From: an uncultured Candidatus Saccharibacteria bacterium
Lineage (GTDB): Bacteria; Patescibacteriota; UBA1384; CAYGGE01
Assembly: GCA_964592905.1 (NCBI GenBank)
Contig: CAZQGJ010000001.1
Coordinates: 1-35,906, forward strand
Direction of reading: 5' to 3'
DNA: 35,906 nt
Below, in pieces: positions 7,652 to 24,311 of the stretch (its first letter is position 1; each line of letters begins with the position of its first letter). Below the pieces are notes generated by a model. The model ran no database searches. It was not told where the DNA came from and saw nothing but the letters and a program-made list of their open reading frames with translations. The position numbers and the translations under genes were made by a program.

Positions 7652-8629
7652 TTGCTCGAGGCTAAGCGGTTAGCGATTATTATGCACGAAAAGCCCGATG
7701 CCGATACCATCGGCTCATCGCTGGCTTTAGCTCGCGGGCTCTGGCAACGAGGAGTTAAGTCTCGACTCTATAGCCGAGACCGCTGGCCAGCCCCCTTTAG
7801 ATATCTGATTGAGGACGAGCGGCTGGAGCCTAGATTCGACCCTGACGAGCCGGACACGGTTGTCGTCATTGATTGCGGTGACTTGCGCCGAACCGGCTAT
7901 CCAAATGAGGTAACGCGATTTGCCGAACAGGCTGGACGGCTAATTCATATCGATCACCACGGTGAGAGCGACCTCTATCGGCTGGCTAACTACCGCTATT
8001 ACGATCCCGAGGCGGCAGCCACCGGCGAGATGATTCATCGGCTACTGCTCTGTCTCGAGGTTGAGATAACATCGAATATTGCCAAACCGTTATTTGCCAG
8101 TCTCTATTATGATACCGGCGGCTTTAAGCATGCTAACACCGACAGCCGAACGCTCGAGCTGGCCGGTTCATTATTAAGCGCTGGAGCTAACCTCAAGGAG
8201 TTAGTCCGTCATAGCGAGCTCGATCGCTCCTTAGCCCAACTGCGACTGTGGGGGCGAGCGCTAGAAAATAGCTGGCTCAATGATAAATATGGCCTATTGG
8301 TAACAGTTTTGACTCAAAAGGATTTTGCCGAGCTCGAGGCGGATCCTAGCGAAGCGGCTGGTCTGATTAATTTGATGAACCAAGCCAACGAGGCAAAGGT
8401 CGCCCTGTTACTCTACGAAACCGAGGCGGGGTTGCGCGGTAGCCTCCGCACCGAAAGTCAAAGAATTGACTTAGGCGAGCTCGCCAACTGGCTTGGCGGT
8501 GGGGGATTACGGCGGGCCGCCGGCTTTCAATTACCGGCTAGGCTTGTCAAAGAGGCAGAAAACTGGCATATTGCTCTTAGTTACTCACCTCAAGCCGGGG
8601 TGGCGGAATGGCAGACGCGGCGGACTTAA
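7652..8629 (+). CDS. nrnA: DHH-family phosphoesterase (NrnA-like oligoribonuclease/pAp phosphatase)
   Basis: Motifs HEKPDADTIGSSLAL, VVVIDCGD, IDHHG and the DHHA1 motif GGGGLRRAAGF. The last 36 nt overlap tRNA-Leu(TAA). Confidence 0.85.
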   Translation: MLEAKRLAIIMHEKPDADTIGSSLALARGLWQRGVKSRLYSRDRWPAPFRYLIEDERLEPRFDPDEPDTVVVIDCGDLRRTGYPNEVTRFAEQAGRLIHIDHHGESDLYRLANYRYYDPEAAATGEMIHRLLLCLEVEITSNIAKPLFASLYYDTGGFKHANTDSRTLELAGSLLSAGANLKELVRHSELDRSLAQLRLWGRALENSWLNDKYGLLVTVLTQKDFAELEADPSEAAGLINLMNQANEAKVALLLYETEAGLRGSLRTESQRIDLGELANWLGGGGLRRAAGFQLPARLVKEAENWHIALSYSPQAGVAEWQTRRT

Positions 8630-8678
8630 AATCCGCTAGGCAAAACCTGTGCGGGTTCGAGTCCCGCTCCCGGCACCA
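8594..8678 (+). tRNA. tRNA-Leu(TAA), CCA encoded
   Basis: Acceptor stem GCCGGGG/TCCCGGC. Anticodon arm GCGGA-CTTAAAA-TCCGC. Long variable arm. T-arm GCGGG-TTCGAGT-CCCGC. Confidence 0.9.
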
Positions 8679-8717
8679 ACAAAACAAAACAGTTGTCGCA
8701 AGTGATAAGGTGCTCTA

Positions 8718-8993
8718 ATGATTAATCAAGAAAATAAATTACAACGATTTCTTGGCAAGAAAATTACTTTAAAAGATCTCGTTTCATTGACGTTATGGAT
8801 GTATAGCGGTTTGCTAGTAATCGGCATGATTATGTCAAAACTCTTTGATGTGGAGTTTATCGACGAATTTATGAAGTGGCCCTTCAAAGATGTAGTGTTT
8901 TGGTTATTGTTTTCGTTCAAAGTAGTGCCAGACCTTATTAGCTGGTTAGGGTCTATCAACAGAAAAAAATCGAATGGCATAAAGACTCGTTAG
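8718..8993 (+). CDS. small hypothetical membrane protein (two predicted TM helices)
   Basis: The 91-aa ORF follows AAGGTG. Hydrophobic stretches LVSLTLWMYSGLLVIGMIM and VVFWLLFSFKVV. Confidence 0.5.
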   Translation: MINQENKLQRFLGKKITLKDLVSLTLWMYSGLLVIGMIMSKLFDVEFIDEFMKWPFKDVVFWLLFSFKVVPDLISWLGSINRKKSNGIKTR

Positions 8994-9105
8994 AGCTCTC
9001 AAGCATTCATAATATATGAAGAGTTTAAAATTCAATAAGAATCTGGTCCCAATAGTTCTCGATGGCTCCATGGAATAACAATCTCATTGCCAATTTAACC
9101 AGCTA

Positions 9106-9140
9106 TTGACAGTTGACATATCGTAACCGATTTGATAAAT
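9106..9140 (+). promoter_or_regulatory. strong sigma70-like promoter (tandem TTGACA, TGATAAAT -10 region)
   Basis: TTGACAGTTGACA at 9106-9118, then 16 nt to ATAAAT at 9135-9140 preceded by TG. Confidence 0.4.
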
Positions 9141-9147
9141 TATTTAT

Positions 9148-9220
9148 GGAATTGCTTCCGACCCGAAATGTGGTGGTTACCACCGCAATCTCTTCCAAGA
9201 GATAGGGTCGGGAGTTTTTT
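9148..9220 (+). ncRNA. candidate ~70-nt small RNA or compound terminator folding as a three-way junction with a U6 tail
   Basis: 10-bp outer stem CTTCCGACCC (9155-9164)/GGGTCGGGAG (9205-9214). It encloses hairpins GTGGTGG-TTA-CCACCGC and ATCTCTT-CC-AAGAGAT. TTTTTT follows at 9215-9220. Confidence 0.4.
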
Positions 9221-9519
9221 ATTCAGGAGATACCTCTACTAGGATCTCTTGTTTTTTGATTAGAGCTCTATAGTCATCTGCATATTTCCATTTTTCTTCG
9301 ACGGAACAATTAACCACACCACAAACATAATTGACTGGCTTAGTGACTTATTCCTTTGTGATGAAATACTTGTTTGAGACAAAATCTAATCCAGGATCAC
9401 TAGATCTGTCAATGAAATCTAGCATGCCTTAAAAGGACCATGCAAAGACCGAGGTTTGTACTACACCTAAATATATGGTTTTCCCCCTCCTAAAAGAGTA
9501 AAATGAACACAAGGACGGT

Positions 9520-11901
9520 ATGGCAAACGAAACATTTTCACGAGTTATTATTGATCGAAAATTAAGGGAAGCCGGCTGGGATATTGAAGATTCCAACCAG
9601 GTTATTTTTGAGGATCATGGAATTGCCGGCCGCTCTGATTACATCCTTAAGGATAAACAGGGTCGTCCGCTTGCACTCATCGAGGCTAAGGGACCGGATA
9701 TTGACCCTTATAACGCCAAGCAACAAGCACTCAACTATGCTGAAACACAATATAAGGGAAAGATTAACCATATCTACCTGGCGAATGATCATCTTATTTA
9801 CTTTTGGGATTTTACAACTGGTGGCGATGCTATTCCTGTTCCCCATTTTTTCTCTCAAAATGACCTAAGCCGTAAGCAGCAGGTTAAAACTTTAGCTCAT
9901 ACGGAGCCGCTCAATCAAAAAATGGTTGAAAAGGATTATTTTCACGATGTTGATTCAGATATTATGCTTAGGCCTTATCAGATGGAAGCTTGGCACGCCA
10001 TTGCTGGTGATTATGATAATGGAAAACGAGGCTTTCTTTTGGAAATGGCTACCGGAACCGGTAAAACAGTCCTTGCTTCATTAATAATTTCTAAATTCCT
10101 CCGTACTCATCAAGCACAAACAGTTTTATTCGTGGTAGACCGCATTGAACTCGCTCGTCAAACTAAAGGCACATTTGAACACTTGCTTGGTCACCTCTCT
10201 GCGGTTGGTACTTACTGGGGTGATTCCAAGAAGAATCTGGTTGGAGCGAATGTTGTTATCGCAACTATTCAATCGTTGATCGCTCACGGTCAGGATGTTT
10301 TTACGCCAGGGTATTTTGATTTAGTCATTCACGACGAAGCGCACCGTAGCATCTATTCACCAGAGGCTCGCGGAATTATGGATTATTTCGTAGGTGCCAC
10401 AAAAATTGGTCTGACTGCCACCCCAAAGGATTTCTTAAAAAATCTGGATATGGGACGACTCGGCCTTGATGATCCCCGGGCAGCTGAACTACGAGTACAG
10501 CGTGACACCTACCGCTATTTTGGTTGTGAAAATGGCCAGGCTACATTCCGATACACGCTCCAAGATGGGGTCAAAGAAGGTTTTTTGGTACCGCCAAAGC
10601 TACATAAGATGACTTCCGCTCTAACACAACAAGCGCTCAGCCCAGAGGGTTTGGTTGGTGAAGCTGATTATGAAAATGAAAGTTACAGCGTCAAAGATCT
10701 TGAAAAGAAAGTTTTTGTACCAGAGCGCAATCGACTTATGATGCAGGAATTCCTCGAATATGCCGAGAAATCTCCAGATGGCAATATCGGAAAGACGATT
10801 ATTTTTGCAGTTAATCAAACGCATGCTACAAGTCTTGAGAAAATTCTTAATCAACTAAAACCCGAGTTTGGTGGCCGGTTTGCCATAACAATTACTAGCC
10901 GGGTTCAAGGTGCTCATGATCTAGCACGAGACTTTAAGAAACTTGATAATAACCTACCTCGTGCAGCTGTTTCAGTAGATATGCTAACTACTGGTTACGA
11001 CGCTCCAGAGGTACAAAACATCGTTCTTGCCCGGCCAGTATTTGAACCCACTCTTTACCAACAGATTAAGGGTCGAGGCACCCGCCTCTGTAAAGAAATT
11101 GATAAAAAACAATTTGTAGTTTTTGATTTCTGTGGCGTCTGTGAATACTTTGAAGAGCAGTACGACTGGAAAGCACCTCAAAAGATTACAAAGCCAACCG
11201 ATGAGACAACCCCACCAACGCCAAAAGGGCCTTACGGACCTAGCCCAACTGGTGAAGGTGAGCCACCAGAACCGCCAGCTCCTAAAACTGAAACGTCCAC
11301 TATCTCTCGTTTGGATGTAGTTGGTTCACGCGATCAAATTATCTATGGGCCCGATGGTGACAAAGTCGATCGTGAAATGTATCAGGATGAGTGGAGCCGA
11401 CAGGTCAAAACCTTTGTCGATGCTCACCCAGAGGCTATAGAGATGGCTCAAGACGACACAAAGACTGAGGAGCTGATTGATCTCCTTAATACTGAACTAT
11501 TAAACCGACCTGATTTTTACTTTAATGAGGGTAACCTCATCCAATCACACAGAGTTATTGCATCTGTTCGAGACTTTTTTCTGTCCGCAATCGGTAAAGG
11601 ATCGTTACCAAAACGCAATGAGCAGCTAGGCGAATGGCGTAACGGAATGCTTGATAAGTATGGTCAGGCATCATCAGGTGGTTCACAGAAGCGCTACCTA
11701 ATGACCCGATTAATGGTTGATGAAATAATGAAGAACGACGAGCTTCGTATTGGCCTTCAACAAAAACCAAGTTTGAATTTCTTGCTTCATGAGCCATTTA
11801 ATCTTGACTTTAGACCAGAAGAATGGCTATATACATACGGCAAAGACACCCTTTTCGAGATGGTGCACGATGTTAAGAATAGCCAATTACTGAAAGTCTA
11901 A
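9520..11901 (+). CDS. hsdR: Type I restriction enzyme R subunit (EcoAI/EcoEI-like short HsdR)
   Basis: N-terminal nuclease motif RVIIDRKLREAGW...GRSDYIL...LALIEAKG (PD-(D/E)xK). SF2 helicase motifs MATGTGKT, IHDEAHRS, LTATP and QQIKGRGTR. About 790 aa, as in type IB R subunits. Confidence 0.9.
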   Translation: MANETFSRVIIDRKLREAGWDIEDSNQVIFEDHGIAGRSDYILKDKQGRPLALIEAKGPDIDPYNAKQQALNYAETQYKGKINHIYLANDHLIYFWDFTTGGDAIPVPHFFSQNDLSRKQQVKTLAHTEPLNQKMVEKDYFHDVDSDIMLRPYQMEAWHAIAGDYDNGKRGFLLEMATGTGKTVLASLIISKFLRTHQAQTVLFVVDRIELARQTKGTFEHLLGHLSAVGTYWGDSKKNLVGANVVIATIQSLIAHGQDVFTPGYFDLVIHDEAHRSIYSPEARGIMDYFVGATKIGLTATPKDFLKNLDMGRLGLDDPRAAELRVQRDTYRYFGCENGQATFRYTLQDGVKEGFLVPPKLHKMTSALTQQALSPEGLVGEADYENESYSVKDLEKKVFVPERNRLMMQEFLEYAEKSPDGNIGKTIIFAVNQTHATSLEKILNQLKPEFGGRFAITITSRVQGAHDLARDFKKLDNNLPRAAVSVDMLTTGYDAPEVQNIVLARPVFEPTLYQQIKGRGTRLCKEIDKKQFVVFDFCGVCEYFEEQYDWKAPQKITKPTDETTPPTPKGPYGPSPTGEGEPPEPPAPKTETSTISRLDVVGSRDQIIYGPDGDKVDREMYQDEWSRQVKTFVDAHPEAIEMAQDDTKTEELIDLLNTELLNRPDFYFNEGNLIQSHRVIASVRDFFLSAIGKGSLPKRNEQLGEWRNGMLDKYGQASSGGSQKRYLMTRLMVDEIMKNDELRIGLQQKPSLNFLLHEPFNLDFRPEEWLYTYGKDTLFEMVHDVKNSQLLKV

Positions 11902-11904
11902 TTT

Positions 11905-14409
11905 ATGTCACATACAGATTTCAAAAATCGAGTCGACGGTTTGATGAATATTTTATGGAGTGGTGGGGTTGCTAACCATTCCACAATCATTGAGCAGATA
12001 AACTACTTAGTCTTCTTGCGTTCTCTTAGTAAAAAAGACGACCATGCCATGCGTATCGATCCCGAAGCAGAGCGGGTTTTTCAAGGTGAATTATCCCAGT
12101 ACCACTGGGATAATTTGCTTGTATTAAATGCCGAGGTTCTTTTTAGCACCCTTGAAGATATTTATCGTCGATTGCCCGAGCTTACGACTGACAAGACTAT
12201 TCAACTTCTTTACCGTGACGCTCATGTGAAGGTTTTCGACAAACCAACCTTACGGCGGCTTGTCCACGAAATTGAGCAGCTAATGAGCGATCTTGAAAAA
12301 GAAGCTACGACCGGCCGTAATGACATCTTCGGTGATATGTACGAATATCTCCTCAGTAAGCTAGCTCAGGCCGGTACTCTCGGATCATTCCGAACACCAC
12401 GTCATATTATTAATTTTATTGTTGATGTCATCGATCCCGATAAAGGCGAAACTATTCTTGACCCAGCTTGCGGCACAGCTGGCTTCTTAGTAGCAGCGTT
12501 GGAGCACCTCAAAGAAAAATACTCGTCAGAGGAATTCAAGAAGGAGAACAAGCATCCGCTCGATTTACTGAGCCCCGACGAGCGCAAATTCCTTTTCCAA
12601 CACACATTCACCGGATTCGATAGTGATTTTGATATGTTCAAGTTCGGCCTCATGAACCTCTACCTTCACCAGCTTGAGCATCCAAACATTAAGCGCATTA
12701 ATACACTCGTTGATACCGCCGGTGATCGTACTAAATGGGATATCATTCTTGCTAATCCTCCATTTGCAGGTGCCGTGGATCAATCAAGTATTAGCGAAGA
12801 TCTACAAATGGGAACGCGCGCTACCGAAATCCTGTTCCTGCGGTATATGATTGATCACTTATCACCTACTGGAAGAACCGGCGTAATCGTACCGGAAGGT
12901 ATTATTTTTTCTAATACCAATGCACATAAAAAAATTCGACAATTACTTATCGAAACAGCTGGCTTATGGGCAGTAGTTTCGCTTCCTGCCGGCGTATTTA
13001 ATCCATATTCTGGCGTGAAAACTAGTATTCTGTTTTTTGATAAATCAATTGCAAGAAATATTGAGAGTATTCTTTTTGCAAAAGTAAGTCATGACGGTTT
13101 TGATTTGGGGGCAAGTAAAAGGCTTGTTGATAAGGACGATCTACCGAATGCATTAAACGCCTTGCTAAAATATCACAGTGGATTAAGGAATAAGGCTTCA
13201 AACGCTGCTGAAGCAATTTATATCTTGGGTGCAGAAATTGCACACTTAATCCCAAAGCACAAAATTTCTGAAACTGGCGACTATAATCTCTCTGGAGATC
13301 ACTATCTACTCTCCTCTGAATACTCTGATGCTAAATGGCCGATGGTCTCAATAGAAGAATTATGCGATCTGGGAAGAGGGCGCGTAATAAACAAACAAGA
13401 TATTGCGAAAAATCCCGGGGCTTTCCCAGTTTACTCTTCACAAACAACCGATGACGGTATCTTTGGATATTTAGGTTCCTATGATTTTGACGGTGAATAT
13501 GTAACTTGGACTACAGATGGAGCGAATGCCGGAACAGTTTTTTACAGAACTGGAAAATTCAACTGCACCAATGTATGCGGGACATTAAAAGCCAAAACGA
13601 AAAAAATAAATATGAGATTTTTGGCACAAGCTTTAAATAGGATCGCATATAAACATGTTATTCATGCTGGAAACCCAAAATTAATGAATAACGTAATGGC
13701 AAAAATTACAGTCCCTCTTCCCCCACTTGAAATTCAAGATCAGATCGTAAAAGAATTGCGTGGTTATCAAGAGATTATTGACGGAGCGACACAGATCGTC
13801 GCTAACTGGAAATGCAAAATCGAAATCGATACAACATGGGAAAGAGTAAAGCTTAAAGATGTTTGCAATATTAACCCCAAGAAAATTGAGATCAAAAATA
13901 TCAATCCGGAAACAGAAGTTTCTTTTGTGCCAATGGCTGATTTAAATCAAAATAATGCTAATTTTGTGATCAAGCAGACAAAAAAGCTATCTGAAGTTAT
14001 AGGAAGTTACACCTATTTTACAGAAAACGATGTTTTACTTGCCCGTGTAACACCATGTTTTGAAAATGGTAAAGCGGGTATCGCAAGAAAACTAAAGAAT
14101 AAAATTGGTTTTGGATCGAGTGAATATATCGTGATTAGACCAAGTGAGAAAATCTTACCGGAAATCATCTATTGTTATATTTCGGAGCAAAGATTTAACG
14201 CTGCTGGAAAAATAAAAATGACTGGCACTGGTGGCCTACAGCGAGTACCAGTTGATTTTGTACAAAACTGGGAAATATCCCTACCTCCACTCGAAGTTCA
14301 AAGGCAGATTGTGGATCAAATAGACATCGAACGCACTTTAGTTGATGGAAATAAAAAATTAATTGAGATCTACAAAAGAAAAATTATCGATGTTTTAAGC
14401 GCAATATAA
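11905..14409 (+). CDS. fused Type I methyltransferase-specificity protein (HsdM-HsdS, two TRDs)
   Basis: N6-adenine MTase motif I LDPACGTAGFL and motif IV NPPFAG. These are followed by two ~150-aa variable regions, each ending in an HsdS conserved helix (PLPPLEIQDQIV..., SLPPLEVQRQIV...). The ATG lies 3 nt after the hsdR stop. Confidence 0.9.
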   Translation: MSHTDFKNRVDGLMNILWSGGVANHSTIIEQINYLVFLRSLSKKDDHAMRIDPEAERVFQGELSQYHWDNLLVLNAEVLFSTLEDIYRRLPELTTDKTIQLLYRDAHVKVFDKPTLRRLVHEIEQLMSDLEKEATTGRNDIFGDMYEYLLSKLAQAGTLGSFRTPRHIINFIVDVIDPDKGETILDPACGTAGFLVAALEHLKEKYSSEEFKKENKHPLDLLSPDERKFLFQHTFTGFDSDFDMFKFGLMNLYLHQLEHPNIKRINTLVDTAGDRTKWDIILANPPFAGAVDQSSISEDLQMGTRATEILFLRYMIDHLSPTGRTGVIVPEGIIFSNTNAHKKIRQLLIETAGLWAVVSLPAGVFNPYSGVKTSILFFDKSIARNIESILFAKVSHDGFDLGASKRLVDKDDLPNALNALLKYHSGLRNKASNAAEAIYILGAEIAHLIPKHKISETGDYNLSGDHYLLSSEYSDAKWPMVSIEELCDLGRGRVINKQDIAKNPGAFPVYSSQTTDDGIFGYLGSYDFDGEYVTWTTDGANAGTVFYRTGKFNCTNVCGTLKAKTKKINMRFLAQALNRIAYKHVIHAGNPKLMNNVMAKITVPLPPLEIQDQIVKELRGYQEIIDGATQIVANWKCKIEIDTTWERVKLKDVCNINPKKIEIKNINPETEVSFVPMADLNQNNANFVIKQTKKLSEVIGSYTYFTENDVLLARVTPCFENGKAGIARKLKNKIGFGSSEYIVIRPSEKILPEIIYCYISEQRFNAAGKIKMTGTGGLQRVPVDFVQNWEISLPPLEVQRQIVDQIDIERTLVDGNKKLIEIYKRKIIDVLSAI

Positions 14410-14428
14410 TGCAGTTGACGGAGCGCAG

Positions 14429-15100
14429 ATGGCTGATACTAATAACCTGAATAAACCTACACTTGAAGAAAAGCTATCACTCAAAGCAAGCCAGCTTCGA
14501 AGAGCCTTACAGGACAAAAACTATCCTCAGTCTGCCAACGCACATTTTGGAGTTTGGATAGCACTATTAAGTAAGGAAGATTATCAAGAAGCCTGCCCTC
14601 ATGCAGCGTTATCGGCGCGAAGGCTGATGGAATGTGCAGCATTAGAGATCACGGGACTACAACCTGAGAAAAACCCTGGTGACATAGCGAATGAAGTAAA
14701 AAGATTAAAAGAAAGTTTAAGCAAGGCAAACCCATCGGAGGTTGATGGCATGTGGATTGTGCCATTGTCATTTTCTAAAGATTTACAAAAGTTTTTCGAC
14801 ACATTCGATAAGCGCCAGACAAGAAATCAACGTATGCAGGAGATGTTGATGAAAGCTGACCCTAGCGGTATCCCGATTCCAGAAGATGTGAGAGGGTTAA
14901 TGGCTTCGGATTGGGTTAGCCTTTTTGGATATTTTAGCAATACATTGCACTTTTCCTATCCTCAGGAAATTAAACGCGAGGAATTAATCCAAAAAATAGA
15001 GAAGTTAGAACAACTATTATTAGAGTATATCCTCTACGCGGGTGCGGTTGAAAACCTCGATGAGATTGATAGCCTCATCGAAGAAACGGAAGTGATATGA
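14429..15100 (+). CDS. hypothetical protein, apparently all-helical with an acidic C-terminus; no assignable motif
   Basis: 223-aa ORF with GGAG 5 nt upstream. It starts 19 nt after hsdMS and is AT-rich like its neighbours. Confidence 0.75.
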   Translation: MADTNNLNKPTLEEKLSLKASQLRRALQDKNYPQSANAHFGVWIALLSKEDYQEACPHAALSARRLMECAALEITGLQPEKNPGDIANEVKRLKESLSKANPSEVDGMWIVPLSFSKDLQKFFDTFDKRQTRNQRMQEMLMKADPSGIPIPEDVRGLMASDWVSLFGYFSNTLHFSYPQEIKREELIQKIEKLEQLLLEYILYAGAVENLDEIDSLIEETEVI

Positions 15101-17640
15101 CAAATAAACCAGTTGATATAACAAAGCTAAAAAATCTTATTAAAGGTGGATCCAGTTACGCTTACTTTTTCAACAACATTACAAGCTCTGATTGGCTTAT
15201 GCCCCTAATAAATGAGGGTTTCTTCACCAAACCACCGGCCGCAGAAAAAGATGGTCAGTGGATCAGCTTTCCAGTCTGGCCAGAGATTAACTACTTACTA
15301 AAAGTAGCGAGCATATCGCCTGACGAGACTACGATAGCATTGGACAAAATTTCCGATACAGACAATCAATATGTTTTAGACATGTTCGTAAAAGTATTAC
15401 TTGAGATTGGTGCAAAACGAGCGGTACGATTTACAGATAGAGTTGTTGCGTTTCTTGCAATACCCTTTCAGTTTCGTATCCATGAGGAATCGACTAAGTT
15501 AGTCTGTCTTTTGGCAAAAGAGGGGTACACTGATGAGGCAATAAAAATCATAGATGCATTGCTTGAGGTGATGCCTGATCCCCGTGCTGAAAATGCAGGA
15601 ACAGATGAATATCAAAAGTACTTAATTGAGCCTCAGATTAAGTATCGAGACTATGACTACCAAGAAATCATCGAAAAAGTCACGCCAGGCCTCGTCGCTG
15701 CAGACCCAGCAGGTGCTATAAAGCTTTTCTCTAAACTTTTGAACAATGCTGTCATTTATAAATCTGTTCGCTATGAACACGACTCTAGCTCTGACGGACA
15801 GGACTACTCAAATATATGGCGTCCTGCTATTGGGAGCCAAAAGAGGGATAATGGGAATCAGCCGTTTGATGGTTTGGTGTCGGCCCTTCGAGATGGTCTA
15901 ATCGGGTTATTAGCCTCTAATATATCTGACAAAGAAAAAATAACTGTTCTGAAAAATGTTGTCGGTCTAAAGTTTCTTATATTTAGCCGAATTGTTGAGC
16001 ACGTTTTGCAAAGCTTAAAAGATCAGGCTCCCTACAAAGAACTTTACGACGAAATTCATAAAAACTTTGATAAGTTTCTAATTGAGAAAGCATTCGTTAT
16101 TGAAAGCGGAGAGGTCATCCCAGAGCCAGGCATTACGATTGAGGAACTAAATCAACTTGATGACGCCGCCTTAATTCAAAAACTTACAAGCCATAAGCCA
16201 CCCGATCGTTTATTTGGAAGAGACGCAATCGATAATTTAATTTCGACATTGATTAAAAACGATCCGAAGCGATTTATACAAATTGCTCCAGAGTTTCTCG
16301 CAGCTAGCCACCAACTGGCTAATGGCTTTATCTATTCTCTAAACGACATCATTGGAAACCTAGATCAACAGACAGTCGATGTTCTACTGGCAGATCTAAG
16401 CAACTGGCTTAAGACAACCAAGGGAGCAGATGATGATACATATTACTCTTGGGCAAAATCAGCCCTTGCTCGGTTGGTAGATAAGCTATCAGATCAGAAG
16501 CGTAAAAATAGTGAGTATGGTTCTGTGGCTTCTGCGGAGTCATTGCTCGATATTATCCTCAGACTTGCCCGCGATAGTGATCCAACCCCCGAACGAGAAG
16601 AGAGAGATGATAGTGATAATTGGGATCCAGTATCTGTAGCGATCAACAGCACTAGGGGTGAGGCGCTCCATGCATTAGCTGGCTTCGTTGGTTGGGCGCA
16701 CAGAAACAAAGCAAATCAAAAATATCTACAACAAGCGTATGACGAGCTTGACTGGCACTTAAACACTAACAATGATCCATCGTTCGCTATACGTTCAGTC
16801 TTCGGTCAGCATCTGCCACTACTCGGATATGTAAATTCCCAATGGGTTAAAGATAATATCGGCAGTATTTTTTCCGATGATACATACGGCGATGCTGCTT
16901 GGGATGCTTACGTCAGCTTTACTCAGCCGTATAAAGACCTATTGCCACTAACAGAACCCTTTATTAAAAAACGATTATCTAATTTAAGGGTCTATCCTGA
17001 GGGCAAAAATCGTAGGGCTGACATGGGACAATCACAATTTGTCCATCATTTAATGATTTATTATTGGAACGGTTATCTGGATTTGGTTGATGGAGGCGTA
17101 ATTAAAACATTTTTTGAGACTGCAGACGTCAAATATCGAATTGAAGCATTACACTTTATCGGCTTTGCCTTAAAAGAGGACAAGTCAGAAACGAGAGAAG
17201 AGGTATTGGATCGATTGAAAATACTTTGGGACTATCGACTTACCGATTTAGTGAGTAGCGATAAAGAAAATCAGAAGGAATTAGAAGAATTTGGTATATG
17301 GTTTGCATCAAATGCATTTTCGAATGACTGGGCAATTGCAAACCTGCAAAAGGTTCTAGTTATTACACAAAACGCAAATCCTGATTTTATGGTTCTAGAG
17401 AAGCTTTGTACCATGGTAGAAAAATATCCCGTTGAGGCAATTATATGCCTAAGGGAAATGATCGCTGGTGCACGAGAGCGATGGTCAATTAGCAGCTGGA
17501 AAGAATATGCGTCAATAATAATTCGTATTTCTTTTGAGTCTGGAAACTCTGAGGTTAGCAGAATAGCTAAAGCTCAGGTCGATATACTGATTAGCAAAGG
17601 CCACCATAATTTTCGTAATCTCGTGAAGAAAATCAAGTAA
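15097..17640 (+). CDS. large hypothetical protein (847 aa), helical-repeat-like, no catalytic motif recognised
   Basis: ATGA start/stop overlap with the upstream ORF. I saw no Walker A, DEAD/DEAH, PD-(D/E)xK, HNH or SAM motif. The N-terminus is aromatic-rich: SSDWLMPLINEGFF...WISFPVWPEINYL. Confidence 0.85.
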   Translation: MTNKPVDITKLKNLIKGGSSYAYFFNNITSSDWLMPLINEGFFTKPPAAEKDGQWISFPVWPEINYLLKVASISPDETTIALDKISDTDNQYVLDMFVKVLLEIGAKRAVRFTDRVVAFLAIPFQFRIHEESTKLVCLLAKEGYTDEAIKIIDALLEVMPDPRAENAGTDEYQKYLIEPQIKYRDYDYQEIIEKVTPGLVAADPAGAIKLFSKLLNNAVIYKSVRYEHDSSSDGQDYSNIWRPAIGSQKRDNGNQPFDGLVSALRDGLIGLLASNISDKEKITVLKNVVGLKFLIFSRIVEHVLQSLKDQAPYKELYDEIHKNFDKFLIEKAFVIESGEVIPEPGITIEELNQLDDAALIQKLTSHKPPDRLFGRDAIDNLISTLIKNDPKRFIQIAPEFLAASHQLANGFIYSLNDIIGNLDQQTVDVLLADLSNWLKTTKGADDDTYYSWAKSALARLVDKLSDQKRKNSEYGSVASAESLLDIILRLARDSDPTPEREERDDSDNWDPVSVAINSTRGEALHALAGFVGWAHRNKANQKYLQQAYDELDWHLNTNNDPSFAIRSVFGQHLPLLGYVNSQWVKDNIGSIFSDDTYGDAAWDAYVSFTQPYKDLLPLTEPFIKKRLSNLRVYPEGKNRRADMGQSQFVHHLMIYYWNGYLDLVDGGVIKTFFETADVKYRIEALHFIGFALKEDKSETREEVLDRLKILWDYRLTDLVSSDKENQKELEEFGIWFASNAFSNDWAIANLQKVLVITQNANPDFMVLEKLCTMVEKYPVEAIICLREMIAGARERWSISSWKEYASIIIRISFESGNSEVSRIAKAQVDILISKGHHNFRNLVKKIK

Positions 17641-17697
17641 GCCCTTGCCCTACAGCCCATCTAATGGCATGATCAGCACAGCAAGCGAGTATTTACT

Positions 17698-18450
17698 ATG
17701 ACATACGGACGGCAAAGAAATATTTTCGATCCAAAGTCGGAAATCCCATTCAAATTATCGAGATCAAGATTAGAGAACTTTACCAAATGTCCTCGGTGTT
17801 TTTATATTGACCGCCGACTTGGGATCGGCCAACCGTCTAGCCCTCCATTTAGTTTGAATAATGCAGTCGATGAATTACTCAAAAAAGAGTTTGATATTCT
17901 TCGTGAAAAAGGTGAAGCACATGCCTTAATGACAGAGTACGGACTCGATGCCGTACCTTTCAAAGACGACCGAATGGACGAATGGCGTGACTCACTCCGG
18001 CGTGGCATCCAATATCTTCACGAACCAACCAACCTGCTAATTTGCGGTGGAGTTGATGATGTGTGGGCTAGGCCTGACGGCGAGCTAATCATTGTTGACT
18101 ACAAAGCCACATCAAAAAATGGTGAGGTCGAATGGGACGATAACGCCCAGCATCATAAGCAGTACAAGCGCCAAATGGAAATTTACCAGTGGTTATTCCG
18201 CAGGAACGGATTCAAGGTCTCAGATACTGGATATTTTGTATATGTGAACGGCCAAACAGAGCGCGACGGATTTCATGGCAAGCTCGAGTTTACTGCCAAA
18301 TTATTACCTCACACCGGCGACGACTCATGGGTTGAACAGGCTATTATTGACGCCCGCAAATGCTTAATGAGTAAGACGATGCCAGAGTTTAGCCCGCTTT
18401 GCGAATTCTGCCAGTATAACCAAGCTATATCAGTGTTAAAAATTTATTAA
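17698..18450 (+). CDS. PD-(D/E)xK nuclease, Cas4/RecB-like, with Cys clusters (probable Fe-S)
   Basis: N-terminal CPRC. Motifs GGVDDV, IIVDYKAT (D-x-K) and QMEIYQWL (QxxxY). C-terminal Cys residues ...C(x14)CEFC. Confidence 0.85.
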   Translation: MTYGRQRNIFDPKSEIPFKLSRSRLENFTKCPRCFYIDRRLGIGQPSSPPFSLNNAVDELLKKEFDILREKGEAHALMTEYGLDAVPFKDDRMDEWRDSLRRGIQYLHEPTNLLICGGVDDVWARPDGELIIVDYKATSKNGEVEWDDNAQHHKQYKRQMEIYQWLFRRNGFKVSDTGYFVYVNGQTERDGFHGKLEFTAKLLPHTGDDSWVEQAIIDARKCLMSKTMPEFSPLCEFCQYNQAISVLKIY

Positions 18451-18534
18451 CTATCTTAAATTTTATTCTGGCTTGCAATCTAAAAAATATGAAATTCACT
18501 CGTAGATACATATTACTAAGTCGATAGGACACCG

Positions 18535-19236
18535 ATGAAGCTCTATAAATATAGACCACTTACGACCTGTGAGGATTTCAGTAGGGCACAAGAGATATTG
18601 AATGGTGGTAAATTTTGGTGCACTAGCTTTTGCAATCTCAACGACCCTATGGAGGGGGTCTATTCATCCAATGATTTCAAGTCAGATCAAATTAAATCGC
18701 TGTACAAAAGTAAGGAAAGCTTCAGTATCTGTTCATTTTCCGAAGCATTTTCAGATCCAATTTTGTGGGCACACTATGCCGGCGGTTTTCGTGGCATAGT
18801 TATTGAAACTACAGTCAACCGAGAAAGTATTCAGCCAGCAGTAGTGAAAAAGATTAACTACGTTGAGACTATATTAGAAATTCAAAAAAAGGTTATCGAT
18901 AGCAAGGTCCAAGATGGCGAAGAAATTGACAAGGTAGCGATATCAATTCTGACTACCAAGCTAGCGCATTGGAAACACGAGAAGGAACGTCGCTATCTGA
19001 CAAGAGAAGGAAGTGGCTATCACGAGATCGGTAAAATAACCGGACTGTTTACTTGGTCAAACGACTCCGTCCAGAATTATGCAGATATAGTTCAGAGTTG
19101 CTCAGATCTGAGTGATTATCAAACCTACAGAGATTGTCTTATCACAATAGCAAACAATCAAAAGATAAGGCAGTATGTCGTTGGAATGAATAATAAAGGC
19201 AAAATAAAACGAATTAAACACGATAATCTGTGCTAA
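18535..19236 (+). CDS. DUF2971-family protein
   Basis: The N-terminus KLYKYRPL...AQEILNGGKFWCTSFCNLNDPMEG matches the characteristic DUF2971 opening (lYkY...il.n..l.fs....lNDP.E). Confidence 0.75.
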   Translation: MKLYKYRPLTTCEDFSRAQEILNGGKFWCTSFCNLNDPMEGVYSSNDFKSDQIKSLYKSKESFSICSFSEAFSDPILWAHYAGGFRGIVIETTVNRESIQPAVVKKINYVETILEIQKKVIDSKVQDGEEIDKVAISILTTKLAHWKHEKERRYLTREGSGYHEIGKITGLFTWSNDSVQNYADIVQSCSDLSDYQTYRDCLITIANNQKIRQYVVGMNNKGKIKRIKHDNLC

Positions 19237-19245
19237 ACTATACCT

Positions 19246-19932
19246 ATGATCTGGAATAAACTTAATGCCCGAGCTATCCGAGCTTTGTTTAGCTTGGTCT
19301 TTATCTTGTCAGCTGGCATTATCATCTTCAGCAACAATATCAATTACGCTAGTTTGCTCTATCCGCCGATTCCCGATAGTCACTACCAAATGATCACCGA
19401 TGCGGTGGATCACTGTCAGGTACCGCGCGAGATGCGCGGCTTTATCGCCTCGGTCGCCCGGGCCGAGAGCGGCTTTCGACCGGGGGCGGCCTCGGGGGCA
19501 GGGGCTGTCGGGGTAATGCAGCTCTTACGCGCCACTGGCTACGGCGTGGCGGTTAACTACGGCATCAGCGGCCTCAACGCCAGTACCTTTACGGACCCGG
19601 CAATTAGTTATAAGATGGGCACTTGCTATATCCATTACATTATGGGCAAATATAGCGGTGGTGCCGACAAGGCTCAATGGAATAATCCTGAGTATCTTAA
19701 GGCCGTCATGATCGGCTACAACGCCGGACCGGCCAAAGGTCAAAGCTATCTCAACGGTGGCAGTAGCTACCCTAGCTCATCGCTTGCTTACGCTAATAAG
19801 ATCATCGGGTCGACTGCCGCCTATACCACCGACTTCGTCCAGTGGGAATTGCGTCAAGCCAGCGGCGAAGCAGCCACTCCAGATAGCGTCCGGGCTACCA
19901 TCTGGCGCTACCTCATCGGCAGTCAACCATAA
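19246..19932 (+). CDS. membrane-anchored lytic transglycosylase (SLT domain)
   Basis: N-terminal TM segment. Catalytic ARAESGFRP...GAVGVMQL and GYNAGPAKG motifs. GC content returns to backbone level here. Confidence 0.85.
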   Translation: MIWNKLNARAIRALFSLVFILSAGIIIFSNNINYASLLYPPIPDSHYQMITDAVDHCQVPREMRGFIASVARAESGFRPGAASGAGAVGVMQLLRATGYGVAVNYGISGLNASTFTDPAISYKMGTCYIHYIMGKYSGGADKAQWNNPEYLKAVMIGYNAGPAKGQSYLNGGSSYPSSSLAYANKIIGSTAAYTTDFVQWELRQASGEAATPDSVRATIWRYLIGSQP

Positions 19933-19945
19933 TCGAATTCACATT

Positions 19946-21718
19946 ATGACCGCAGCAGAAATCCGCCAACAATTCTTTCAGTTACTTGCCGAATCTGGTC
20001 ATAGCCACTGGCCAGCCGCCCGTCTGTTACCCGAGGGCGATAACTCGGTTCTCTTTACCGTGGCCGGCATGCAACAGTTCAAAGATTACTACGCCAAACC
20101 AGCTTTGGCGCCACACTGTCGTCTGGCTACGGCTCAACCAGTCATTCGCACCATCGATATCGACGAGGTCGGGGACAACCGCCACCTGACCATCTTCGAG
20201 ATGCTCGGCTACTTTTCTTTCGGCTATCGAGCCGACACCCCAGAGGCGCTCGACTCTAACACCCCCTATTTCAAAAAAACGGCTATTGAGCTAGCTTATA
20301 AATTCTTTTTCGAGCGACTAGGTATCGCCATCGAGCGGAGCTACGTCACCGTCTATCAGGGCAAAGAGGGTGTACCGGCTGACCACCAATCGGCTGCGAT
20401 CTGGCAAGAGCTTGATTATCCAGCTGACCAGATTCGCTTCGAGGGCGAAGATAACTTTTGGGCCCTGGGGGTTGGTTCGCCTTGCGGACCTACCACCGAG
20501 ATCTATGTTGACGGTATCGAGGTTGGCAACGTCGTCTTTAATCAATACCTCATGACTGGCGAGAATCAGCTCGAACCCTTAACCGAACTCGGCGTCGACA
20601 CTGGCCTCGGCCTAGAACGCATCGCCTTGGTGATGCAACAGGCACCCGATGTCTACGCCACCGATCTACTAGCGCCTATCGTCGCCAAAATTATTGAGTT
20701 GGCAGAGTTAGCAAGCGAACCGACGCCCGATCAAGCGCTCAAGATCAGAATCATCGCCGATCACCTTAAAGCCAGCGCTTTCTTAATTAACGACGGCGTC
20801 CGCCCCAGTAATAAGGCCCAGGGTTACATCTTGCGCCGACTGCTCAGACGACTGGGTTTAGCGACCATTCAACTTGGCCTCTCGCCAAACGATCTGCTAG
20901 CCTGCCTTGAACCAATCTTGACTATCTATGCCGATACCGGCTCACTGGCTCTCGACTATGGCAACATCTGCCTGGTGATGACCGAGGAATTAAATCGCTT
21001 CAAAGTAGTTTTAGAACACGGTCAGGCAGAGCTGGAACAGATGCTCAAACAGACAGCCGAACCGAAGCTAACAACCGATCAGGTTTTTCAGCTCTTTGAT
21101 ACCTTTGGCCTACCCTATGAGGTAATTGAGTCGTTAGCTCAAGAGCGGGGAGTCTCTCTAGACAAGGCTGCATTCGAAAAGCGCTTTGCCGAGCACCAAG
21201 AGACGAGTCGACAAACAACCGGCGGAACCTTTGCCGGTGGCTTAGCCGATCACGAACCGACCACTATTTCTCATCATACGGCGCATCATCTGCTATTAGC
21301 CGCTTTGCAATCGCTACTCGGCGCTCAAACCAAGCAACGCGGCTCGAATGTCACGAGTGAGCGACTACGGCTCGACTTTAACGTTGATCATAAACTGACA
21401 CCCGAGGAGCTTCAAGCGATCGAGGCCAAGGTGAACGGCTGGATCGAGGCTGACTTGCCAGTGACTCGCGCCGAGATGCCGAAGACAGAGGCCGAGAAGC
21501 TCGGTGCCCAGGCCGAATTTGGGGCTAAATACGGCGAAACGGTCAGCGTCTATACCGTTGGCGACTTCGAGCAACCGATCAGTCGCGAGTTTTGCGGCGG
21601 CCCTCACGTCGCCAGTACCGGTCAATTAGCCGAGTTTGGCCGCTTTAAGATCCTGAAAGAAGAGGCCAGTAGCGCCGGGATCCGTCGGATCAAGGCAAAA
21701 CTAGTCAAATTAGCCTAA
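19946..21718 (+). CDS. alaS: alanine--tRNA ligase, compact form (591 aa, no C-Ala domain)
   Basis: MTAAEIRQQFFQLLAESGH...FTVAGMQQF catalytic core. Editing-domain motifs HTAHHLL and CGGPHV. The ATG at 19946 is chosen because the annotated upstream extension overlaps the transglycosylase gene. Confidence 0.9.
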   Translation: MTAAEIRQQFFQLLAESGHSHWPAARLLPEGDNSVLFTVAGMQQFKDYYAKPALAPHCRLATAQPVIRTIDIDEVGDNRHLTIFEMLGYFSFGYRADTPEALDSNTPYFKKTAIELAYKFFFERLGIAIERSYVTVYQGKEGVPADHQSAAIWQELDYPADQIRFEGEDNFWALGVGSPCGPTTEIYVDGIEVGNVVFNQYLMTGENQLEPLTELGVDTGLGLERIALVMQQAPDVYATDLLAPIVAKIIELAELASEPTPDQALKIRIIADHLKASAFLINDGVRPSNKAQGYILRRLLRRLGLATIQLGLSPNDLLACLEPILTIYADTGSLALDYGNICLVMTEELNRFKVVLEHGQAELEQMLKQTAEPKLTTDQVFQLFDTFGLPYEVIESLAQERGVSLDKAAFEKRFAEHQETSRQTTGGTFAGGLADHEPTTISHHTAHHLLLAALQSLLGAQTKQRGSNVTSERLRLDFNVDHKLTPEELQAIEAKVNGWIEADLPVTRAEMPKTEAEKLGAQAEFGAKYGETVSVYTVGDFEQPISREFCGGPHVASTGQLAEFGRFKILKEEASSAGIRRIKAKLVKLA

Positions 21719-21725
21719 TTTCGGC

Positions 21726-21754
21726 TTGACGCCAGGCCTTAAATCTGTTAATCT
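21726..21754 (+). promoter_or_regulatory. sigma70-like promoter upstream of uvrA
   Basis: TTGACG, 17-nt spacer, TAATCT. Confidence 0.35.
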
Positions 21755-21815
21755 AGTTGACCGTGTCGAACTACTCCGGCACTCGCTAACTTTTAATCAG
21801 ATTTGAGTTAAAACT

Positions 21816-24311
21816 ATGAAACAATTTATCACTGTCTCTGGGGCGCGAGTTCATAATCTCAAAAATATTACCCTCAAGATACCTAAAAATCAGCTGACGG
21901 TTATTACCGGTCTTTCTGGCTCGGGTAAGTCTTCCTTGGCCTTTGACACTATCTATGCCGAGGGTCAGCGTCGTTATGTTGAGTCTCTGTCGAGCTACGC
22001 CCGACAGTTCTTAGGCGTTCTAGAAAAGCCTGATGTTGACTTTATCGAGGGTCTCTCGCCGGCTATCTCGATCGATCAAAAATCGGCGGCCCGTTCGCCT
22101 CGCTCCACCGTTGGCACGATGAGCGAGATCTATGATTATCTACGTTTACTCTACGCCAAAGTCGGGACAGTTTTCTGTCCGGTCTGTCACTCTGAGGTCA
22201 AGCGCGAGCGCAAACCGATTCGCCACAAGAACAAAACTACCGGCCAGACCAAACTCGAGTATGTTTATCAGTGCGGCCAGTGCCAGCACGAGTTTCCTGA
22301 GATTACGATGAGCTCTTTTTCCTTTAACTCACCGAGCGGCGCCTGTCCAACCTGTCACGGCTTGGGCGTTCGCCTAATTATTGATCCCGAACTAGTTTTG
22401 CCGAACCCTAACCTCACCCTTGACGAGGGTGCAATCCGACCCTGGTCGCGCCTGACTAGCCAGGCTAGCTGGTACACTAAAGTCCTCAATCAGCTCAGTT
22501 TACACCACCAAATCAACCTCAAAACTCCGGTCAAAGAGCTGACTCCAGAGCAAATCAAGTCCGTGCTTTATGGCGTGGTTTCAAACGCCGCCGAAAGCGA
22601 CAAGGCCAACGGTTTTGAAGGTGTCATCCCGAATCTCGAACGCAAATATCACGAAACCGACTCGGAGTATGTTCGAACAGAGATCGGCAAATATATGGTC
22701 GAACGCACCTGCGAGAGCTGTCAGGGACAGCGACTGCGGGCCGAAGTCCTTGGTATCACCATTGACGGTCAATCGATCGCGCAGGTTAGCGGCCTGACGA
22801 TTAGCGAGGCCGAAGCCTTTTTTGCCAAACTGACTTTTGCCGAAGCACTCGGGCCAATCGTTGAGCCGTTGCTACGCGAGATTAAGGCTCGTTTGGGCTA
22901 CTTGATGCAAGTTGGACTCGACTATCTCACCCTCGATCGTAACGCCGACACCTTGGCTGGCGGCGAGGCCCAACGGATTCGCTTAGCCACCCAGCTCGGC
23001 TCGGCCCTGACTGGCGTGCTTTATATTCTTGACGAGCCCTCGATTGGTTTGCATCCGCGCGATCAAGACAAACTGATCAATACCATGAAGATGCTCAGAG
23101 ACTTAGGCAATACGGTCATCGTCGTTGAACACGATGCCACCACGATGCTCGCCGCCGACTATCTAATCGATATCGGCCCAGGAGCAGGGGAGTTTGGCGG
23201 ACGAGTCGTCGCTGCCGGTACTCCGGCTCAGGTTATGGCTAACTCGCGATCGCTCACCGGACGCTACTTAGCCGGTCTAATCAAGATCTCGACCGATCAC
23301 CCTAAGCGTCAACCCGGGAGCGCTAAGATTCAGGTTCAGGGTGCCACCGAGTTTAACCTCAAAAATGTGACTGTTGATTTCCCGTTGCAGACCTTTATCT
23401 GCGTCAGCGGAGTCTCGGGGTCGGGTAAATCGACCTTAGTTGCCGATATTCTGGCCCGCGCTTTAGCCAAAAAGTTTCATCATGCCAGAGTCGAGCCGGG
23501 TAAGCATCGCGGCATTACCGGCCTTGAACATATCAACAAAGTCATCGCAATCGATCAATCGCCGATCGGTCGCACGCCTCGTTCCAATCCTGCCACCTAT
23601 ACCGGTGTCTTTACCCCGATTCGTCAGCTCTTTGCCGAAACGCCGTTGGCTCTCGAACGCCAATATGACGAGGGTCACTTTAGCTTTAACGTTAAGGGCG
23701 GCCGTTGCGAAGCCTGCCGCGGCGAGGGTGCAATCAAGATTGAGATGCATTTCCTACCCGATATCTATGTCAACTGTGAAGAGTGCGGCGGAACGCGCTT
23801 TAACCAAGAGGTACTCGATGTCCTCTATAAAGGCAAAAACATCGCCGATATCCTCAACTTTTCCGTCTCTCAGGCCCGCAAGTTCTTTAAAGATCAGCCG
23901 GCTATCGCCGAGAAACTAGCCGTCTTAGACGAGGTCGGTCTGTCGTATATGCGACTTGGTCAAGTCGCCACCTCACTCTCGGGCGGTGAGGCGCAACGGG
24001 TTAAACTTGCGACTGAACTATCGCGTCACGATACCGGCAGAACTCTCTATATTCTGGATGAGCCAACAAGTGGACTCCACTTTGCCGATATTCAGAAGCT
24101 TTTAGAAGTTTTGCAAGCTCTGGTGGATAAGGGTAATACGGTCTTAGTCATTGAACATAATCTCGATATTATTCGGGCCGCCGACTGGGTCATCGATATG
24201 GGCCCCGATGGTGGCAGCGGTGGGGGACAGGTAGTGGCCGTCGGTACACCTGAAACGATTGCGAACGAGCCTCAGTCGTTGACCGGTCGTTACCTTAAAC
24301 CGTTACTTTAA
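21816..24311 (+). CDS. uvrA: excinuclease ABC subunit A, short form (831 aa)
   Basis: Two ABC modules ([10 protein letters not shown] and [10 protein letters not shown]; two LSGGEAQR signatures). Zinc modules CPVC...CPTCHGLG and CEACRGEG...CEECGG. Only about 45 aa lie between CPVCH and [13 protein letters not shown]. Confidence 0.9.

Follow-up and report, generated by a model that had tools for sequence, protein, structure and literature searches.

Which of its neighbours does a stand-alone Cas4/RecB-like nuclease belong with, when its gene lies between a set of restriction-modification (R-M) genes and a gene of the DUF2971 family? The question is raised by a 35.9-kb Saccharibacteria contig, analysed here in its entirety and referred to as the window, which is part of a 766-kb genome that is 94% complete. 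On one strand, the window carries in succession hsdR, a fused hsdM-hsdS, a 223-amino-acid (aa) open reading frame (ORF), an 847-aa ORF, the nuclease gene and the DUF2971 gene. An earlier note, made from the letters of this DNA, had proposed that the nuclease and the DUF2971 protein either form an independent two-gene defence unit or are the effector part of one system with the 223- and 847-aa ORFs. Our comparisons showed that the nuclease goes with the R-M block rather than with the DUF2971 gene or the 223/847-aa pair. Its gene is conserved in this lineage as the terminal member of a mobile block with the order hsdR-hsdMS-(swap-in cassette)-nuclease. The two ORFs at issue had been described correctly as to position, strand and length, and are as follows.

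17698..18450, + strand: nuclease gene; stand-alone PD-(D/E)xK nuclease (PDDEXK_1) of 250 aa, with a putative CxxC...CxxC clamp joining the N- and C-termini.
18535..19236, + strand: DUF2971/PDC-S31 (Aristaios-like) single-gene defence candidate of 233 aa; outside the block common to G001, a genome of the same genus.

We compared this locus with the corresponding sites in G001 and in G002, a genome of the same family. In blastn alignments, the window regions 8231-8679 and 19227-24253 were only ~530 bp apart on contig C1 of G001, at 81% identity, and the gene order there was a DHH gene, tRNA-Leu, ~530 bp of low-GC filler and then slt-AlaRS-UvrA. The spacing from tRNA-Leu to slt in G002 was ~130 bp. 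This empty site in both genomes therefore identifies window 8680-19226, including both genes, as one insertion, and it confirmed the earlier proposal that the two genes belong to a defence island of acquired DNA, in which they are oriented like the R-M genes. The GC content was 0.33-0.50 within the island, as compared with 0.51-0.58 in its flanks. The features that define the island and its R-M genes are given here.

8594..8678, + strand: tRNA-Leu(taa), left anchor of the slot, found with ARAGORN; homology to G001 reaches 8679 and then ends.
8680..19226, + strand: inserted low-GC island of 10.5 kb; neither G001 (same genus) nor G002 (same family) has it at this site.
9520..11901, + strand: hsdR, type I restriction subunit, EcoAI-like (Pfam ResIII 2.4e-36; PADLOC REase_I 1.3e-66).
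11905..14409, + strand: fused hsdM-hsdS, methyltransferase plus two target-recognition domains (Pfam N6_Mtase 1e-51, Methylase_S 3e-41).
19246..19932, + strand: slt-like lytic transglycosylase, core gene and right anchor (Pfam SLT 8e-16); 92% identical in G001, where it comes right after the tRNA-Leu slot.

The hsdR product also matched the NCBIfam EcoAI/FtnUII family at 3.3e-87, under the equivalog cut-off of that family. Two other descriptions of the locus were considered and rejected. The nuclease might have been a resident core gene beside a hotspot, having DHH upstream and AlaRS downstream as it does elsewhere, but the empty site puts it inside the insertion. A classical integrase/attachment site (att) island was not supported either, as an integrase was absent and direct repeats common to both junctions did not exceed 8 nt.

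Two details of the junctions were also observed. The G001 slot (locus L111, G001:C1 452-980) was not strictly empty, as it held the ~530 bp of filler, which is unrelated DNA of 34% GC, and the tRNA-Leu/slt slot may itself be a variable hotspot. At the right-hand junction, window 19227-19236, which contains the final DUF2971 codons and stop (CTG TGC TAA), was homologous to the G001 host flank upstream of slt, which means that the very end of the inserted gene is made up of host sequence.

A second location in G001 indicated that the nuclease moves together with the R-M genes. On another contig (C5), this genome carries a block of hsdR-hsdMS-1059 aa-nuclease next to the tmRNA gene, the 3' end of which is duplicated there, and the window genome (G000) has the same tmRNA locus, on its contig C15, without that block. 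Alignment of the two blocks divided the island into two conserved arms and a variable slot.

9364..13113, + strand: conserved left arm, extending from the sequence upstream of hsdR through hsdR itself to the methyltransferase core of hsdMS; 83.9% DNA identity to G001:C5.
13114..17626, + strand: variable slot, comprising the hsdS target-recognition domains and a cassette that consists, in the window, of the genes for the 223-aa and 847-aa proteins; neither G001 nor metagenome locus L029 has homologous DNA over this stretch, although both flanks are homologous.
17627..18461, + strand: conserved right arm, comprising the nuclease gene and short flanks of 71 bp on its upstream side and 11 bp on its downstream side; 83.1% DNA identity to G001:C5 4761-5591.

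The same arms were recognized in L029, where the DNA identity was 73.7% over window 9476-13112 for the left arm; within the nuclease gene, it was ~74% to L029, L027 and L115. The breakpoint at 13112/13113, which is at the end of the hsdM core and just before the first target-recognition domain, was identical in the comparisons with G001 and with L029, suggesting joint exchange of the specificity domains with the cassette downstream of them. The cassette itself was the 223- and 847-aa pair in the window and in the P0001 contig, a 1059-aa QatA/PifA-like ATPase in G001, and a 269-aa gene with SMODS and DUF6602 genes in L029. The hsdR-hsdMS-(cassette)-nuclease order was also present between other flanks on two metagenome contigs, and DpnI, a protein kinase and an AAA_15 ATPase were found in cassettes upstream of the nuclease elsewhere. 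The 847-aa protein matched the C-terminal region of PADLOC Dsr1 (7e-27), with the SIR2 effector domain missing. The proposal that the nuclease is the effector of the 223/847-aa pair (14429-17640) was not supported by these loci, as the nuclease is retained where other cassettes have taken the place of the pair, and the constant partner of the nuclease in the window's clade is the R-M backbone. From these alignments, the hsdM core and the nuclease gene appear to act as two arms between which specificity domains and defence cassettes are swapped.

The tmRNA locus had a further feature in both congeners: beyond the tmRNA gene, part of its 3' end was present a second time (...TTCCCCCCAGCTCCA(C/T)CA; G000 C15 ~9560-9742; L014, G001:C5, 4096-4602). 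The DNA past this copy differed between the congeners, with G001 bearing the R-M/nuclease block there, and the locus looks like a second island-integration hotspot.

The DUF2971 gene was separable from this block. The block common to G001 stops 11 bp past the nuclease stop codon, and the G001 island is missing the DUF2971 gene. The DUF2971 N-terminal signature that the earlier note had pointed out (MKLYKYRPL...NLNDPMEG) was indeed present, and the 233-aa protein matched five PADLOC PDC-S31 models (best 6.6e-37, next 2.2e-22, and three weaker) and scored 19.2 bits with Pfam DUF2971 (PF11185), slightly under the cut-off of 22. It had 73 homologue clusters only, among which the pair E149-x-E151 was invariant and may fit a transferase-type catalytic motif. 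One homologue (P0123) was encoded directly behind hsdR with a 4-bp gap, and another (P0126) inside an MmeI/PLD-SNF2 island. The 316-aa DUF2971 protein Aristaios has been validated as a single-gene antiphage system of the abortive-infection type; it has a predicted ADP-ribosyltransferase fold, and it has been proposed to be an ADP-ribosyltransferase-like toxin that is activated by infection (Grafakou et al. 2024, PMC11381338). The window protein resembles such a system in its strong matches to the PDC-S31 models and in the location of its gene in a defence island behind an R-M system, whereas it differs in its length of 233 rather than 316 aa, in belonging to Saccharibacteria and in falling under the Pfam DUF2971 cut-off. 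The DUF2971 gene is an already catalogued single-gene anti-phage candidate of the PDC-S31/Aristaios family, and it forms a separate module, apparently added at the distal island edge. A literature search under the name PDC-S31 found nothing.

We then considered what kind of nuclease the 250-aa protein is. It contains all of the PD-(D/E)xK motifs and the N- and C-terminal cysteines that had been read from its sequence earlier, namely C31xxC34, GGVDDV (117-122), VDYK (133-136), Q159xxxY163, C222 and C235xxC238. Across 213 homologues, C31, C34, C235, C238, D120, D121, D134, Y135, K136, Q159 and Y163 were invariant, and C222 was retained in 90%. Beyond C238 there is no further cysteine. The canonical cysteines of Cas4 and AddB are one N-terminal and three C-terminal residues (C...CxxCx5C). 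The invariant cysteines of this family instead form a 2+2 pattern (CxxC...CxxC), so that the earlier claim was right about the presence of the cysteines but not about their Cas4/AddB-type arrangement. The CxxC...CxxC set would clamp the N- and C-termini of the nuclease at a putative metal site, for which Zn, 2Fe-2S and 4Fe-4S are indistinguishable by sequence.

The protein passed the Pfam PDDEXK_1 model (PF12705) with 52 bits against a cut-off of 22. Its AlphaFold2 model had a predicted local distance difference test score (pLDDT) of 92, and Foldseek matched this model to the putative exonuclease 3l0a, the AdnA nuclease domain, RecE, Cas4 SSO0001 and MGME1, and further to type I-C Cas4, Exo5, Dna2 and lambda exo (E 1e-5 to 1e-2, template modelling [TM] scores of 0.32-0.48, probability 1.0 for the first 13 matches). 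A sequence search of the PDB gave no relative better than E 0.07, and Cas4 SSO0001 was matched at just E 0.36. Motifs and predicted fold together identify the 250-aa protein as a divergent stand-alone nuclease of the Cas4/RecB superfamily, with a D...D-x-K / QxxxY active site that is predicted to be intact. It has no fused or paired helicase, unlike AddAB, RecBCD and AdnAB, and its neighbours are R-M and defence genes. Fusions of this nuclease to GYF+TIR, NUDIX, HD_4 and DUF2779 domains were found (P0211, P0196, P0230, P0245), but they were rejected as functional clues, as each is one single 50%-identity cluster representative and is possibly a gene-calling artefact.

The position of the nuclease at the end of an R-M block was not peculiar to this genus. 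In a tree of the family, the window nuclease was a member of a 13-member clade (Shimodaira-Hasegawa-like approximate likelihood ratio test [SH-aLRT] support of 100), and in all eight members with readable context the nuclease gene came last, at the 3' end, in an R-M or defence array. The arrays varied in content: the one upstream in L027 consisted of a type III-like R-M system and DpnI, others contained a PLD-SNF2 helicase, an MmeI-type methyltransferase and more genes, and another, in a conjugative-element context, contained a type II R-M system and an AAA_15 ATPase. Among five neighbouring tree rows, the three that were looked up were all in defence-type islands as well, and in one of these rows the nuclease came directly after hsdM-hsdS-hsdR with a 6-bp gap. 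A local hidden Markov model scan detected R-M genes six or fewer genes from the nuclease in 15 of 98 loci, 14 times upstream and 14 times on the same strand (background same-strand rate, 0.79). Among the 16 defence-linked loci checked, the nuclease and the nearest upstream ORF either overlapped or were separated by at most 74 bp in 15, and the gap was 146 bp in L096. We counted ~12 independent R-M linkage events, ten of which were upstream and co-oriented, for which our own binomial estimate was p ~0.003 against a null of 0.40.

The nuclease family is large but compact, with >8000 clusters at 90% identity and a length of ~250 aa; the best 120 matches were 61-92% identical to the window protein, and 265 representatives at 50% identity had E <1e-30. 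Within the phylum, the nuclease was present in 82 of 201 sampled genomes (~41%) and in 78 of 183 high-quality ones, nearly always as a single copy and with a patchy distribution within families, and it was missing from 57-59% of the phylum. It was carried by 15 of the 30 nearest genomes, including the same-genus genome (91% identity), and was not found in the three other genomes of the family. In this lineage, the nuclease is therefore an accessory gene. A phage origin was also considered for this Cas4-like gene and was rejected, as a pattern-seeded scan of 2.9 million viral contigs produced just 10 relatives, several of them near a contig end.

We consider it probable that two independent modules are stacked in one acquired island, and that the nuclease acts on DNA breaks made by the enzymes encoded upstream of it. 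The nuclease would then be a general DNA-end exonuclease that works on breaks introduced by upstream restriction or defence enzymes. It might finish invader DNA that has already been cleaved, as RecBCD, which degrades restricted DNA in E. coli, does after restriction, or it might process self-inflicted breaks for repair; either role would make the nuclease worth carrying along with R-M systems in small genomes. This end-processing role would also fit the loci outside defence arrays, because other conserved neighbours of the nuclease there act on DNA (an Mrr-like nuclease, uracil-DNA glycosylase [UDG] and Ogt).

Patescibacteria (candidate phyla radiation, CPR) represent a huge and poorly understood bacterial diversity, in which defence is mainly by restriction-modification and CRISPR is rare. 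A conserved single-copy nuclease that is present in ~40% of their genomes, and is repeatedly the last gene of R-M or defence operons, is a testable candidate for the missing post-cleavage step that RecBCD performs in model bacteria, and it marks an exchangeable defence slot that can be mined for new systems. A more general proposal, which we offer tentatively, is that the solo nuclease of Patescibacteria might be a common "back-end" of DNA-cleaving immunity, and that R-M systems (types I, III and IIG/L) and diverse sensor cassettes come to lie immediately upstream of it, time and again, because they depend on it. It would destroy cleaved invader DNA or rescue the host from self-cleavage and, with the hsdM core, would provide the recombination arms of the exchangeable slot.

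Several observations weigh against this interpretation of the nuclease and of the island. The exonuclease role is one that we infer from gene context only. The genome already encodes a UvrD-type helicase with a C-terminal PD-(D/E)xK nuclease (1044 aa, on a separate contig, G000 C26:2941-6075) and a second stand-alone Cas4/AddB-like PDDEXK_1 protein (252 aa, G000 C10:4968-5711, present in five of five genomes of the family). These two proteins may constitute the housekeeping end-resection machinery, and with them in place an extra end-processing enzyme is not obviously needed. The island carries neither integrase nor att repeats that would account for movement of the block. For the DUF2971 protein, the structural model was good (pLDDT 91), but its best PDB matches, to 8htf (a ubiquitin-bound effector), CteC and DarT1, were not significant (E 0.08-0.5, the best being 0.078; TM 0.23-0.29), so that an ADP-ribosyltransferase fold is weakly supported. 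The enrichment of R-M genes near the nuclease was calculated without a genome-wide background of random genes as a control. Finally, a synteny survey of 93 loci, drawn from 80 species-representative genomes, 12 genomes of relatives and metagenome contigs, placed ~49 of them in conserved, lineage-specific and co-oriented synteny with repair or housekeeping genes, so that the primary role of the nuclease may be in general repair, with its linkage to R-M systems being secondary. For the refuting condition set in the earlier note, that homologues have unrelated neighbourhoods or group with housekeeping repair proteins rather than defence-island genes, the outcome was mixed: the window's clade is linked to defence islands, and about half of the wider family is found in conserved synteny with repair and housekeeping genes.

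These synteny data favour the main alternative, that the nuclease is a resident housekeeping repair gene which happens to border a landing slot for defence genes, its adjacency to them being functionally meaningless. The conserved arrangements were YceG-MnmA-(ATP-cone/Mrr_cat protein)-(DUF7282)-(MgtC)-nuclease-(Ogt)-UDG-AlaRS in 28 loci, heliorhodopsin-HAD-RsmE-nuclease-SerRS-HPF-SecA in 9 loci, DHH-PPIase-nuclease in 6 loci, and an Omnitrophota arrangement in 6 loci, in which large genes were inserted between a conserved neighbour and the nuclease. The synteny groups form their own clades in the nuclease tree, and the nuclease is single copy with 45-66% identity across the phylum, both of which also favour a resident gene. 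Nevertheless, we judge this alternative to be unlikely for the locus studied here: in this genus the nuclease is inside inserted DNA and its block is at different sites in two congeners, the gene is missing from the three other genomes of the family and from the share of the phylum given above, and R-M genes, where present, are nearly always upstream, co-oriented and tightly spaced.

A second alternative is that different sensor cassettes share the nuclease as a downstream effector or helper, which is activated or fed by whichever of them occupies the slot, the candidate sensors being the 223/847-aa Dsr1-like pair, the QatA-like ATPase, SMODS/DUF6602, a kinase and OLD/AAA_15. The many unrelated cassettes directly upstream of the nuclease, several of them with overlapping or 3-bp junctions, would be consistent with such an arrangement, as would the lack of a SIR2 effector domain in the 847-aa Dsr1-like protein and the existence of a rare TIR-GYF-nuclease fusion. 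This nonetheless seems improbable, as several of the cassettes are from families whose members are known to be self-sufficient in defence, in L016, L040, L065 and L123 the R-M genes directly adjoin the nuclease without an intervening sensor cassette, and defence neighbours are missing altogether in half of the family.

That the nuclease and the DUF2971 protein make up one two-gene defence system, as the earlier note had allowed, is very improbable. The genes are adjacent, 84 bp apart on the same strand and both low in GC, but they did not co-occur anywhere else that we looked: with a profile built from DUF2971 homologues, no ORF was matched in 100 other nuclease loci, the DUF2971 gene was present in none of the 30 relatives (15 of which carry the nuclease), and this nuclease was not near the DUF2971 homologue on either of two contigs (L126, L127). 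The end of the G001-shared block between the two genes also argues against a single unit, as does the cataloguing of DUF2971 members as single-gene systems, one of them validated. The nuclease and DUF2971 genes are thus not a new two-gene system.

The nuclease is not a CRISPR Cas4, and it is hardly conceivable that it is the remnant of a true Cas4 from a lost CRISPR-Cas adaptation module: its core motifs align with those of Cas4 SSO0001 and it has weak Cas4 profile matches (PADLOC Cas4, 7e-11; TIGR00372, 1e-9), but it failed both curated Cas4 cut-offs (PF01930, 17.8 bits vs 22.7; TIGR00372, 38.3 vs 65), its cysteine pattern is unlike that of Cas4, no Cas1 (PF01867) was found in the genome, which is 94% complete, neither tandem nor CRISPR-like arrays occur in the window, in agreement with the absence of CRISPR context noted earlier, and the nuclease neighbourhoods with annotated domains contained no cas gene.

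Having weighed these alternatives, we return to the reading of the nuclease as the end-processing last gene of an R-M block, and to its relation to known systems. CPR and DPANN genomes contain a disproportionate number of solo Cas4-like genes, which are mostly vertically inherited; their role was given as unknown, "defence or repair", R-M genes adjoin some of them in DPANN archaea, and the pfam12705 branch was covered briefly (Hudaiberdiev et al. 2017, PMC5704561). The window protein is a nuclease of the same stand-alone, Cas4-like kind with a RecB fold, and its genome is likewise small, with no Cas1 found. In contrast to those genes, it is in the pfam12705 branch with 2+2 cysteines, its gene forms the right arm of a type I R-M block that is mobile, and the upstream polarity of the R-M genes extends across bacterial lineages. 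With Cas4 (SSO0001 and type I-C) and AddB/AdnA, it shares the PD-(D/E)xK core with QxxxY and a cysteine clamp joining the termini, and it matches them structurally at E 1e-5 to 1e-3, but it lacks cas1/cas2 or a helicase partner, falls under the Cas4 profile cut-offs, has CxxC...CxxC rather than C...CxxCx5C, and reaches low TM scores of 0.32-0.48.

The block also recalls the PrrC/RloC-type defence genes that are embedded in type I R-M operons, where variable cargo is exchanged between conserved flanks. Both have variable defence cargo in, or directly behind, a type I R-M operon, whereas the distal conserved flank of the window block is a stand-alone nuclease gene and not an hsd gene, and cargo of the window type includes the Dsr1-like pair, the QatA-like ATPase and the SMODS-containing set. 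A literature search for a Cas4-like nuclease in Patescibacteria found nothing under these terms. The nuclease family and the general idea are already known; what is added here is the empty-site proof, the block with its swap-in slot and the upstream polarity.

A scan of 17400-19400 for promoters and terminators found sites that were no commoner than in shuffled sequence, and it was uninformative on transcription units.

Two other gene associations were observed among the nuclease loci. In ~25 loci (for example L067 8550-9401, L052 and L077), a 275-320-aa protein with ATP-cone and Mrr_cat restriction-endonuclease domains was conserved at one to three genes upstream of the nuclease; these loci were from Paceibacteria-type genomes and had UDG and Ogt downstream of the nuclease. 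In a sub-clade whose members were 70-75% identical to the window nuclease, the nuclease gene overlapped by one base the start of a conserved gene for a 434-435-aa trypsin-like serine protease (L115 9001-11057, L118 9001-11051, L120 9001-11054). This protease is missing from the window, and in that sub-clade the nuclease and the serine protease look like a translationally coupled pair.

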